A stretch of 15,459 nt of DNA from Candidatus Heimdallarchaeota archaeon (GTDB lineage Archaea; Asgardarchaeota; Heimdallarchaeia; Heimdallarchaeales; Heimdallarchaeaceae). The notes under the pieces were generated by a model. The model saw only the letters and a list, made by a program, of their open reading frames with translations, did not search any database and had not been told where the DNA came from. Position 1 is the stretch's first letter, and every line of letters begins with the position of its first letter. Shown here piece by piece: positions 5,765 through 9,162 of this stretch. The position numbers and the translations under genes are program-made. Location of the stretch: contig JAEOTE010000136.1 in assembly GCA_016839945.1 (NCBI GenBank), forward strand, positions 1 through 15,459, written 5' to 3'.

Positions 5765-7357
5765 ATGTTAGTAGAGAAGATAGAGAGAGTTATAATGACT
5801 TTAGATTATGATACATATAGTCAAATTATCCTTGGAACTGTTACGAAGGAAAATACATTATTGATTTTACCTCCCAATTATAGCACTAAAAGGATAACTA
5901 GAATTCTCATGGATTATTTCTCTACATCAGAACCAAATCATAAGGTAGCTATTCTTTATCCTGATATGAAGAGACGAGAGATTGTTGAATCAAATGAAGC
6001 ACAATCTTCAAATGGTCCAAAAATTAGTATAATAAAATCAACTTCAGTAAAAGTACGAAAGGAACAGTATGTAAACTCTGATGTTATTATTATGACTCCT
6101 CATCTCTTGAGGAATGACATTTTTAGACAATTAGTATCGCCTAAAGATTTTAGCTTAATTATTGTAGAAGATGCTCATTTAGCTAAAGGAAAACATGCAA
6201 TTGTGAAACTGTTTGAAATTTTTCATCAAAACAATATATTTGTTCGAACAGTAGGATATACATCCTTCTTTTTCAAGGACTTTCAAGAAATAGACGATGT
6301 ATGTAATAACCTTCTAATCACTAAAATTGAGTTTGGGAAAGAGAAAAGTTTCATTCTTACATCTCTCGAATCCAATTTTAATGAAAAAGTTATCACAGTT
6401 CCAATTAACAAACCAATGTATAATTTTTGTTCAGAATTAAATAGATACATTAGAGAATATCAATCATTTCTTAAGAAAAAAGGTGTGAATAAACCACTTA
6501 CTGTGAGAAGAGAATTCCCTGATTTCATAATGCAAATTCGTAAAGAGTACAATCATGATCAACAAAGAATTTTGATAAGAAAAGCTGTTGAGTTGATTAA
6601 TTTTCAGACTTTGAAAGAACTGGTTGAAGCTTCTGGAGTAAATTCAGCTATAAAATATCTAAACAATTTAGAGATGAAAAATAAGGAAACCAAAGGAGAT
6701 GAAAAAGTAAGTAGCCTTCATAGTAGTTTTGTTAGAACACCTATTTTTCGGGAATTATTGGTAGAACTAGAAACAATGGCTGAAAAAACGGATCATCCTA
6801 AATTTCAGCGATTAGTTCAACTAGTAAATGAATTGAAAGAGAAAAAACAATTTTCAAATTTCTTTATCATTGTGAACAATAAAACAGTTATTAAGAACCT
6901 TTCATCATTTTTGAAAAATTCAGGATTAGATAATGCTATTTTACCGAAGAATCAAACAAAGGAAAGAGAAAACACTTTATCAAAATTCCTAAAAGGGGAA
7001 ATCAAAATCCTTCTCTCTACAAAGCTTCTTGATTTGAAAGCTGATGCACTTATTTTCTTTAACAATCCTGTGAAATTCAGCGATTATCTTGAAAGAAAAA
7101 ACAAAGATAGTGATGTATACATCTTATTAACTCATCGTTCAAATGAAGAAAGAGTTTTTCACAAATTCAGAAATAAGGAAAAAGTTGTTGGTAAAATATT
7201 AGAAGATTCAAGATTAAAACAGCGATTAATTCGAAATCAACAGATAATATTTAAGAAAAGAATAAACGAACAGATGGATTCCAGAACTAAAGCTATGGTA
7301 AATGTTGTAAGAGTGCTTCAAAAGGGGAGAAAATATCAGCCTAAGGGTGATGAATAG
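5765..7357 (+). CDS. Hef/FANCM/Mph1-like SF2 helicase-fold protein, predicted ATPase-dead (pseudo-helicase), with no C-terminal ERCC4 nuclease
   Basis: Scaffold matches Hef: ENTLLILP (cf. NTLVVLPTGLGKT), IMTPHLLRNDI (motif Ib TPQTxxND), FSLIIVEDAHLAKGKHA (cf. LIVFDEAHRAxGNYAY), a helical insertion domain, DHPKF (HPK), and FLKGEIKILLST (cf. FxxGExxVLVAT). Walker A reads PPNYSTK, DEAH reads EDAH, motif III reads GYTSFF, and motifs V and VI are unrecognisable. Alternative start at ATG 5795. Confidence 0.75.
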   Translation: MLVEKIERVIMTLDYDTYSQIILGTVTKENTLLILPPNYSTKRITRILMDYFSTSEPNHKVAILYPDMKRREIVESNEAQSSNGPKISIIKSTSVKVRKEQYVNSDVIIMTPHLLRNDIFRQLVSPKDFSLIIVEDAHLAKGKHAIVKLFEIFHQNNIFVRTVGYTSFFFKDFQEIDDVCNNLLITKIEFGKEKSFILTSLESNFNEKVITVPINKPMYNFCSELNRYIREYQSFLKKKGVNKPLTVRREFPDFIMQIRKEYNHDQQRILIRKAVELINFQTLKELVEASGVNSAIKYLNNLEMKNKETKGDEKVSSLHSSFVRTPIFRELLVELETMAEKTDHPKFQRLVQLVNELKEKKQFSNFFIIVNNKTVIKNLSSFLKNSGLDNAILPKNQTKERENTLSKFLKGEIKILLSTKLLDLKADALIFFNNPVKFSDYLERKNKDSDVYILLTHRSNEERVFHKFRNKEKVVGKILEDSRLKQRLIRNQQIIFKKRINEQMDSRTKAMVNVVRVLQKGRKYQPKGDE

Positions 7358-7367
7358 TTTATAGAAA

Positions 7368-7372
7368 GAGGT
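7368..7372 (+). promoter_or_regulatory. Shine-Dalgarno (GAGGT) for the XPD-like gene
   Basis: GAGGT lies 8 nt before the TTG at 7381, within a 23-bp intergenic gap. This is consistent with an internal operon cistron. Confidence 0.55.
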
Positions 7373-7380
7373 AGAGAATT

Positions 7381-9162
7381 TTGCAGCAAATAAGTCAAGA
7401 AGAACAAAGCTGGGAGATTGCCAAAATTCTATTTCCCTATAAGAAAATGAAACTTCCTCAGAAGAAAATCATTCAATCTATTCTTTTTTCTACTCAACCA
7501 ACCCTAATAAGCTCACAAATAGGAGTTGGAAAAACAGCTGCAATTCTTACAGCTCTACTTGCTCTAAAAAAACCAGATGAAAAAATAGTTATTTTTGTTA
7601 GAACTAAAGCTCAGATTAATGTATTTCTTAGAGAACTGTCAAATATCTACAAACAGATTACACAACATTGGGATATACTTAGTAGTCATTTTCAGAATTT
7701 TCCAGTTTTCATTCCATTTTTAGGAAAAAACGAATTATGCTTAAAAGCAAGAAAAGGCTACCCAAGTGAGATATATACACATATTTGCAATTTAACTCGT
7801 TGTCCGTTGAAAGCAAAAACTCAGAGAGTTACAAAGGAGGATATTTTGGAATCAGTTAAGAATCTATTCTATACTTTTTCTAATTTAATCTCAAAAGAAG
7901 ATATTCTTGATAGTTTGAATTCCGAGAAATATTGTCCGTATTTCTTTTCTTATTTTCTTCTACAAAAAGCAGATGTTATTGTAACAAGTTACCCATTCTT
8001 AGAGAATAAAACTCTCTTTACAAGACTATTTTATAGTATTGGGATTCCATTAAATAAAATACTAATCGGAATAGATGAAGCACATAATTTGTATCAACCC
8101 ATCTCTCAAGAAATTAACAAGACATTTGTTGAAAATGCAATGAATGAGTTTCCTCATGAGGTTTTTTCTAGACTAATTGAATTAACTGAAAAGAAACAAA
8201 TAATTCAGAGCAATTTTGTAGAACAAGATCTGAAAGGATTGGAAGAGGATCTGTTTAGTTTACTGCAATCACAGATAATGAATAACCGATTACCAGCCAT
8301 GAATGCATATTTAGTATATCATTTCTTAATCTCATCTCTCAATAAAACTCTAGTTTCAGATATGCAAAAGATTTCGATAGTCAATATTAAACCTTCAGAA
8401 ATTTTATCCAAGTTCAAGGATACAAAAAGACTTGCTCTAATGTCTGGATCCTTCGAACCTATGCGTTCTTTTCAACAAATTTTCAATTTACCAAACTCAA
8501 GGATCTTGAGAGTCTTCCCTCCTAAAGAGGAAGTTGAAGGAAGATATTTTGTTTTGTGTAATCAGAAATTAAATGCAAAATATGAAAATAGAACAGATGA
8601 ATATTATATCTTAATTAGTAGCACTATTCATAATCTGTTTGATGTAATTGATGGACATACACTAGTATTTGCGCCTAGTTACAAGTATATTGAAAAAATA
8701 GAAGAAATAGGGGTTCTAAGACCTGATATTGTTGAAACACAAGATATGGATATCACAACACTTCAAGCAATAGTTTCATCTTCAGAAACAAAAAAACTGA
8801 TTCTTTGTGTAACTGGAGCTAAGATTGCTGAAGGAATTGAATTCACTATTCAAAATAGAAGTCTAATAAAAGGGATTATAGTTTGTGCTTTACCATATCC
8901 TCCTCCATCTGAAGAAAGTAAATTGATTTATGAAGATCTTCTTTCACAATTTGGACCTCAAATTGCTAGAGAGTTTACTGTTGTTATTCCAATGGTTCAA
9001 AAATTAACTCAAAGCTTTGGAAGGGCAATTAGGAACAAAGGTGATAAAGCTGTTCATATTTTATTAGACCCAAGAGGTACCAAGTTTACTAAGGATTTTA
9101 GTTTTGAAAGACATAAATCTGTTAAAACATTAAAAGGAAAAATAACGCAGTTTTTTGATTAA
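7381..9162 (+). CDS. XPD/Rad3/DinG-family Fe-S cluster 5'-3' DNA helicase (divergent paralogue)
   Basis: Q-motif FPYKKMKLPQ, Walker A GVGKT, motif Ia RTKAQ, four Fe-S Cys (C120 in GKNELC, C136, C141, C185 in CPYF), IDEAHNL, MSGS (III), FAPSY (IV), GAKIAEGIEF (V), LPYPPP, and QSFGRAIRNKGD (VI). Confidence 0.92.
   Translation: MQQISQEEQSWEIAKILFPYKKMKLPQKKIIQSILFSTQPTLISSQIGVGKTAAILTALLALKKPDEKIVIFVRTKAQINVFLRELSNIYKQITQHWDILSSHFQNFPVFIPFLGKNELCLKARKGYPSEIYTHICNLTRCPLKAKTQRVTKEDILESVKNLFYTFSNLISKEDILDSLNSEKYCPYFFSYFLLQKADVIVTSYPFLENKTLFTRLFYSIGIPLNKILIGIDEAHNLYQPISQEINKTFVENAMNEFPHEVFSRLIELTEKKQIIQSNFVEQDLKGLEEDLFSLLQSQIMNNRLPAMNAYLVYHFLISSLNKTLVSDMQKISIVNIKPSEILSKFKDTKRLALMSGSFEPMRSFQQIFNLPNSRILRVFPPKEEVEGRYFVLCNQKLNAKYENRTDEYYILISSTIHNLFDVIDGHTLVFAPSYKYIEKIEEIGVLRPDIVETQDMDITTLQAIVSSSETKKLILCVTGAKIAEGIEFTIQNRSLIKGIIVCALPYPPPSEESKLIYEDLLSQFGPQIAREFTVVIPMVQKLTQSFGRAIRNKGDKAVHILLDPRGTKFTKDFSFERHKSVKTLKGKITQFFD

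Follow-up and report, generated by a model that had tools for sequence, protein, structure and literature searches.

A motor-dead Hef paralog gene coupled to a second XPD-type helicase gene in Heimdallarchaeaceae suggests an undescribed repair pair

The window analyzed here (contig JAEOTE010000136.1, the whole stretch of DNA examined, one complete contig of 15.5 kb) derives from the genome of a Candidatus Heimdallarchaeota archaeon, which has an assembled size of 3.0 Mb, is 88% complete and contains approximately 31% GC. It carries two adjacent genes: a 530-aa open reading frame (ORF A) encoding a Hef-type helicase domain that has lost its ATPase motifs, here termed psiHef, and a 593-aa frame (ORF B) with a TTG start encoding a helicase of the iron-sulfur (Fe-S) XPD/Rad3 family, here termed XPD2. 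The tight coupling of a dead Hef gene to a second XPD-type helicase gene suggests an undescribed repair pair. A functional partnership, in which psiHef acts as a non-catalytic binder of branched DNA that targets or regulates XPD2, is the interpretation favored below, held tentatively and with slightly less than even confidence. A preliminary description made from the letters of the window had noted two co-oriented frames 23 nt apart, a GAGGT before the second, and flanking genes on the opposite strand on both sides, and had remarked that the arrangement would be especially interesting in an Asgard archaeon. The coordinates agree with that description (Table 1), and the host is indeed an Asgard archaeon, of the family Heimdallarchaeaceae, judging by the names attached to homologs of both proteins (among them Heimdallarchaeota, Heimdallarchaeaceae, and Asgard group archaeon).

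Sequence and fold comparisons place psiHef with the Hef helicases. Against the Hef model NF010337 it scored 117 bits over profile positions 16-535 of 781, which is below the cut-off of 610. Its best relatives of solved structure were the helicase domain of P. furiosus Hef (1wp9; 81 bits with the single sequence, 134 bits with the family profile) and then the FANCM translocase, the second-best match to the family profile with 111 bits; no XPF chain matched the psiHef profile at an E value of 0.001 or better. A model built from 29 family members, with a predicted local distance difference test score (pLDDT) of 81, displayed the fold of a superfamily 2 (SF2) helicase domain, in which a helical insert separates the RecA lobes. 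It aligned to 1wp9 with template-modeling (TM) scores of 0.70/0.76 in Foldseek and to the FANCM translocase (9el5) with a score of 0.62. Alignment with 16 real Hefs revealed that the Q motif, Walker A, and motifs Ia, III, V (deleted), and VI are absent from all family members. The Walker A of real Hefs, PTGLGKT, has become PPNYSTK in psiHef, the QRxGRTGR of motif VI is gone, and motif II varies across the family, being a degenerate EDAH in the window. No Pfam match to an ERCC4 nuclease or a helix-hairpin-helix (HhH) domain was obtained for psiHef, which ends at approximately position 535 of the 781 in the Hef profile.

The size of the family was estimated by searching the psiHef profile against 1.84 billion representative sequences. 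Twelve representatives scored at least 334 bits, and all of them lack Walker A, DExH, and motif VI. The next score was 181 bits, and the matches inspected below this gap were almost all motif-intact Hef-type helicases. psiHef is a small, discrete family limited to Heimdallarchaeaceae. It is also under purifying selection: the frame has been kept open in five genera, and the ratio of nonsynonymous to synonymous substitution (dN/dS) for unsaturated pairs was 0.11-0.17. psiHef is most strongly conserved in the second half of RecA1, with motif Ic (TPxxxxND), in an insert resembling Hel2i, and in three C-terminal helices, and most weakly around the former ATP site; motif Ic and an HPK element are common to psiHef and real Hefs. 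Because the Hel2i-like insert and motif Ic are conserved, and the Hel2i insert of FANCM reads the DNA branch point (PMC12263834), psiHef may still bind branched DNA. The earlier reading of the first gene as a Hef/FANCM-like protein that has lost its ATPase motifs is borne out by the alignment, the selection values, and the family-wide loss. The psiHef subclade of the window (P0001, P0003, and P0004) has lost a 65-aa C-terminal tail (YIQFL..C..EA ... NIKGRKxLV) that most family members keep. Comparison of this tail with the HhH2 domain of Hef by hhalign gave a probability of 0.3%, and no similarity was detected.

XPD2 matched PF06733 (DEAD_2) with 52 bits and PF13307 (Helicase_C_2) with 74 bits, both above cut-offs. 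Motifs Q, I (GVGKT), II (DEAH), and VI (QxxGRxxR) are invariant within the XPD2 family, and C120, C136, C141, and C185, which correspond in the alignment to the Fe-S cysteines of S. acidocaldarius XPD, do not vary among 23 family members. The XPD2 model (pLDDT 83, predicted TM score 0.78) contains the four domains of the XPD fold (HD1, FeS, Arch, and HD2) and aligns over its full length to 3crv, 5h8w, and 2vsf with TM scores of approximately 0.7. For unsaturated pairs, dN/dS was 0.04-0.08. In agreement with the preliminary description, which had credited the second gene with all motor motifs and four cysteines, XPD2 is an intact-looking XPD/Rad3-family Fe-S helicase, with cluster binding predicted. 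Its identity to crenarchaeal XPD is 24-26%. Only the XPD2 of the window's own family carries, just before the Fe-S domain, an insertion of eight conserved residues (W97..H103 F104), a candidate contact site. In one genome (G193:C98:15884-17666) a frameshift near residue 90 divides XPD2 into a 519-aa frame and an N-terminal piece with stops, which is either a genuine break in the gene or an artifact of assembly.

Canonical hef and xpd genes, whose presence elsewhere in the genome had been raised as a question in the preliminary description, were both found. Canonical Hef is located on contig C108, scores 852 bits against NF010337, and includes the nuclease and HhH2 domains. Canonical XPD is a 718-aa open frame on contig C78 that scores 332 bits against TIGR00604 (cut-off 247) and resembles the XPDs of T. 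acidophilum and humans far more closely than XPD2 does. XPD2 scored 107 bits against the same model; since it falls below the cut-off that its C78 paralog passes, it is regarded as a family member and not as the canonical XPD. The canonical XPDs of this genome (on C78; L010:316-2469, minus strand) and of its relatives, encoded by frames of 718-761 aa, carry an N-terminal CPxCG...C..C zinc ribbon that is absent from crenarchaeal XPD. Further Hef-related frames were observed in the same genome. The region C97:11400-14712 contains a 237-aa, short-XPF-like frame whose match to Hef (155 bits) is confined to the nuclease and HhH2 part; approximately 1.6 kb away is an open frame for an SF2 helicase of 444 aa. 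A divergent Hef-like SF2 family of approximately 520 aa (C133:27971-29437 in this genome; G259:C107) scores 63-77 bits against the Hef model and has a GKT Walker A with atypical motifs II and VI.

Distribution was assessed across 301 evenly sampled Asgard genomes. The families of the class Heimdallarchaeia are designated f1 to f7, with f1 the GTDB family of the window, and the five genera of f1 are designated g1 to g5, with g1 the genus of the window. In addition to the window's genome, psiHef was found in 20 of the 28 genomes of f1, representing all five genera, while matches outside this family in the sampled genomes were ordinary Hefs. XPD2 is more widespread, occurring in 63 genomes, all within Heimdallarchaeia and distributed over f1-f7, and, at the threshold applied, it was found in none of the 214 genomes from other Asgard families. 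Within g1, both genes are present in 13 genomes and in that of the window, six genomes have neither, and three are discordant, with a gene at a contig end in each. Genera g2-g5 carry both psiHef and XPD2.

The two genes are adjacent and co-oriented in all 13 assessable g1 genomes (12 and the window) and in both g2 genomes. At each of the 15 orthologous loci whose psiHef bears the C-terminal tail, XPD2 begins at a conserved TTG within psiHef, giving an overlap of 14 nt, and the GGAAGG ribosome-binding site of the overlapping XPD2 is encoded by the KGRK codons of psiHef near the end of the tail. The window has the same XPD2 TTG, 10 codons before a conserved Trp, with the spacer and its GAGGT in place of the overlap; here the psiHef stop codon TAG occupies 7355-7357 and the GAGGT sits 8 nt before the TTG. 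As read from these sequences, the arrangement argues strongly for a single transcript whose translation is coupled, and co-expression of psiHef and XPD2 is well supported. Furthermore, flanking genes vary among relatives while the pair persists. In the g1 genomes that lack both genes the AsnB-like flank is only approximately 40% identical and synteny is lost, which makes the flank uninformative there. The self-contained two-gene unit proposed earlier is upheld in g1 and g2 by this adjacency and by the conserved overlap; adjacency does not extend to g3 and g4.

Some sister lineages encode a second full-length Hef, termed Hef2, in which the helicase motifs are all kept and the nuclease motif is eroding. 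In f6 the ERK of this motif has become EYK (G259:C89:61752-64118), and in f3 GD..ERK has become NQ..EWL, with no Pfam match to ERCC4 (G092:C135:6634-8919). Hef2 has a FANCM-like layout and is present in 12 of the 12 f6 genomes searched. In f3 it is adjacent and convergent to XPD2, and in five f6 genomes it lies 8.7 kb from XPD2. The intervening f6 segment is an operon for a 1690-aa immunoglobulin (Ig)-repeat protein that ends in a RadB-like gene; Hef2 is convergent with the RadB-like gene, and XPD2 is at the opposite end of the operon. Hef2 was not seen in psiHef-bearing genomes, nor was psiHef seen in Hef2-bearing ones. A maximum-likelihood tree of the Hef family, with the Hef-like SF2 family of approximately 520 aa as outgroup, recovered psiHef as monophyletic with support of 100/100 and a stem length of 1.98. 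psiHef probably descended from Hef2, in a grouping that is weakly supported, and it is plausible that this Hef2 was already linked to XPD2.

Table 1. Features of the psiHef-XPD2 locus and its immediate neighbors in the window
Feature	Position	Strand	Details
Upstream region	5710-5794	+	AT-rich TATA-like box TTATAAA 5744-5750; 11 codons of low conservation beginning with ATG 5765; probable true start ATG 5795
psiHef (ORF A)	5765-7357	+	RecA1-like 14-190; Hel2i-like insert 213-341; RecA2-like 345-456; three conserved C-terminal helices 457-523
Spacer, 23 nt	7358-7380	+	Holds Shine-Dalgarno-like GAGGT 7368-7372 for XPD2
XPD2 (ORF B)	7381-9162	+	Walker A G48-T52; DEAH 232-235; motif VI Q544-R551; Fe-S Cys 120/136/141/185; family-specific insertion ~W97-F104
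AsnB-like (asparagine-synthase-like) gene	3808-5709	-	Upstream neighbor of psiHef
DegV gene	9180-10052	-	Downstream neighbor of XPD2

The full span given to ORF A in the preliminary description is an open frame, but translation probably begins at the second ATG (Met11) and not at the first, because the closest homologs (P0003 and P0004) begin there and residues 1-13 are unconserved. The TATA-like box may represent the promoter of psiHef. The AsnB-like gene is missing from the contig of the closest relative, in which an amidohydrolase gene directly adjoins psiHef; its position next to psiHef is therefore the result of either a recent insertion or a loss. The remaining genes of the window are metabolic or housekeeping in nature and encode an amidohydrolase, a YbaK-like editing domain, MsrA, PAC2, a methyltransferase, dehydrogenases, and a PAS protein. 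Elsewhere in the same genome, a minus-strand array (C53:6000-22000) encodes a RadA paralog (411 aa), a DEAD-type SF2 helicase (728 aa), a 1042-aa unknown protein, a KaiC/RecA-like protein (308 aa), and several other unknowns; among these are homologs of the genes found beside psiHef or Hef2 in other genera.

In the proposed mechanism, an operon of paralogs of two archaeal repair helicases would make psiHef and XPD2 together. The non-catalytic psiHef would bind branched DNA (forks, D-loops, and flaps) and would target, load, or regulate XPD2, the presumed 5'-3' motor, on replication-fork or recombination intermediates. Of the two-component machine envisaged in the preliminary description, the co-expressed unit of a dead Hef and an intact Fe-S helicase stands; a fixed association of the two is weakened, with the genes separated in g3 and g4 and XPD2 also found without psiHef.

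A number of observations weigh against a partnership. In g3 (two complete genomes) and g4, psiHef and XPD2 are 24-31 kb apart on opposite strands. There, psiHef is accompanied by RecA-family ATPase genes, namely a 363-aa Rad51/RadA paralog 359 bp downstream in g3 (L066:1412-4670) and a 348-aa KaiC/RecA-like ATPase gene overlapping the end of psiHef in g4 (L029:1471-4132), and the partner of psiHef therefore need not be XPD2. XPD2 is present throughout the class, including f2 and f5 where no second Hef was found, so it has no strict need for a psiHef partner. The pair is dispensable in the six g1 genomes that have neither gene. A physical complex is hypothetical, and a complex prediction with XPD2 residues 1-400 (HD2 left out) and psiHef residues 11-525 returned a score of 0.00, which speaks neither for nor against binding. 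No psiHef-XPD2 fusion was found among proteins of 929-2650 aa, which is weak evidence. The proposed binding of branched DNA by psiHef is drawn from conservation alone, and the best tree groups psiHef with both Hef2s at a support of 63/90, which is weak. Finally, the parallel drawn earlier with FANCM and FANCJ is weakened. psiHef has neither a motor nor an ERCC4 domain, and XPD2 is, by score, far nearer to archaeal XPD (108 bits) than to FANCJ and CHL1 (approximately 40 bits). The analogy appears to be only conceptual and not one of orthology.

The genomic context in other genera and families invites a different account, in which psiHef and XPD2 are co-expressed but independent. psiHef would belong to a wider Heimdallarchaeial recombination cluster of RadA/RadB-like ATPases, other helicases, and large surface proteins, its partner would be RecA-family proteins, and the operon of two genera would be a secondary rearrangement. 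The ATPase genes directly after psiHef in g3 and g4 are in line with this account, as are the f6 locus, with Hef2 convergent to a RadB-like gene and XPD2 across the Ig-repeat operon, and the clustering of homologs of these neighbors on contig C53 of the genome itself. The 14-nt overlap, weak TTG start, and internal ribosome-binding site kept across two genera, on the other hand, point to tied synthesis; moreover, the XPD2 insertion is limited to the psiHef-bearing family, and the two genes co-occur throughout f1. Independence is considered possible, although rather unlikely. A smaller likelihood is assigned to psiHef being a decoy or regulator that vies for branched DNA, or for shared partners such as PCNA, with canonical Hef or other enzymes of the fork, thereby dampening or redirecting fork processing, with XPD2 a mere neighbor. 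psiHef retains nucleic-acid-contact elements of Hef (motif Ic, HPK, and the Hel2i-like insert), and the genome also encodes a canonical Hef. However, no PCNA-interacting (PIP-type) motif or dimerization domain was identified in psiHef, the nuclease and HhH2 domains through which Hef dimerizes are absent from it, and the translational coupling with XPD2 would be left unexplained, making such a role improbable.

Two further explanations can be set aside with greater assurance. XPD2 matches the PADLOC profile typeIV_DinG PDLC01439 with 168 bits, as might be expected if the pair were an anti-virus defense or a CRISPR type IV-like system using a DinG/XPD-type helicase. This profile is generic for XPD, being matched by canonical XPD with 332 bits and by S. 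acidocaldarius XPD with 246 bits, and the window contains no CRISPR-like repeats and no cas genes; membership in the type IV CRISPR CasDinG or defense helicases was rejected on these grounds. The pair is also situated inside a conserved housekeeping block, and its tree follows genera, all of which makes a defense function very improbable. Hardly credible at all is the notion that ORF A is a decaying pseudogene without a function of its own. Although its catalytic motifs are all lost, this reading is rejected because dN/dS (0.09-0.17) shows selection, and it is further opposed by the open frame in five genera, the strong conservation of psiHef-specific blocks, and the pLDDT of the model.

Comparison with known systems helps to define what is distinctive about the psiHef-XPD2 partnership. 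Archaeal Hef provides the best sequence and fold match to psiHef and shares its architecture of RecA1, helical insert, and RecA2, as well as motif Ic and HPK; psiHef differs in its lost ATPase motifs and lack of an ERCC4 nuclease, and the window's subclade is also without HhH2 or any other C-terminal tail. FANCM and the helicase-like domain of XPF belong to the same superfamily. FANCM keeps an active motor alongside a dead nuclease, whereas psiHef is devoid of both motor and nuclease. The XPF domain is an inactive Hef-type helicase domain, and like psiHef it was retained after ATPase loss, but XPF keeps an active nuclease and psiHef has none. No specific kinship of psiHef to FANCM or XPF is demonstrated. 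Hef dimerizes through its nuclease and HhH2 domains, FANCM pairs with FAAP24, and XPF pairs with ERCC1. With archaeal XPD (S. acidocaldarius 3crv; T. acidophilum 2vsf/4a15), XPD2 has in common the domains, motifs, four Fe-S cysteines, and fold, and it is set apart as a divergent paralog that has its own insertion in f1 and is coupled to psiHef. To our knowledge, the characterized archaeal XPDs act without a psiHef-like partner.

Inactive Hef-type helicase domains, as in XPF, and XPD-family helicases with accessory partners, as in YoaA-chi of E. coli, are already known kinds; the latter consists of an XPD/Rad3-family Fe-S helicase and a non-catalytic accessory subunit (PMC9826845). The concept of a non-enzymatic partner directing an XPD-family helicase to damaged forks is the same, but chi (HolC) bears no relation to Hef, its gene and that of YoaA do not form an overlapping operon, and no homology is implied. 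The preliminary description knew of no described system like the pair, and our search of the literature, which was incomplete in its coverage, likewise found no description of psiHef-XPD2 or of Hef and XPD paralogs in Heimdallarchaeia.

Hef is the single archaeal relative of eukaryotic XPF, MUS81, and FANCM, which arose by partial inactivation of its helicase or nuclease half, and the archaea known to be most closely related to eukaryotes are found among Heimdallarchaeia. The dead helicase of psiHef, the live helicase of Hef2 with its eroding nuclease motif, and the recurrent linkage to XPD2 show that the same kind of sub-functionalization took place in these archaea. A bolder proposal, which we regard as doubtful, is that psiHef and XPD2 form a stable heterodimer in which a motor-less branch reader places an Fe-S helicase on stalled forks or recombination intermediates. 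Together with Hef2, this would represent a diversification of the Hef/XPF/FANCM family in Heimdallarchaeia, parallel to or even older than the one by which eukaryotes came to have FANCM-like proteins with a dead nuclease and XPF-like proteins with a dead helicase, working with XPD-family helicases. As a simple, expressible two-protein system, psiHef and XPD2 may reveal how an Fe-S helicase is directed or regulated by a pseudo-helicase. Should the two proteins not interact, psiHef would still stand as a clear case of a pseudo-enzyme conserved in the DNA repair of archaea.

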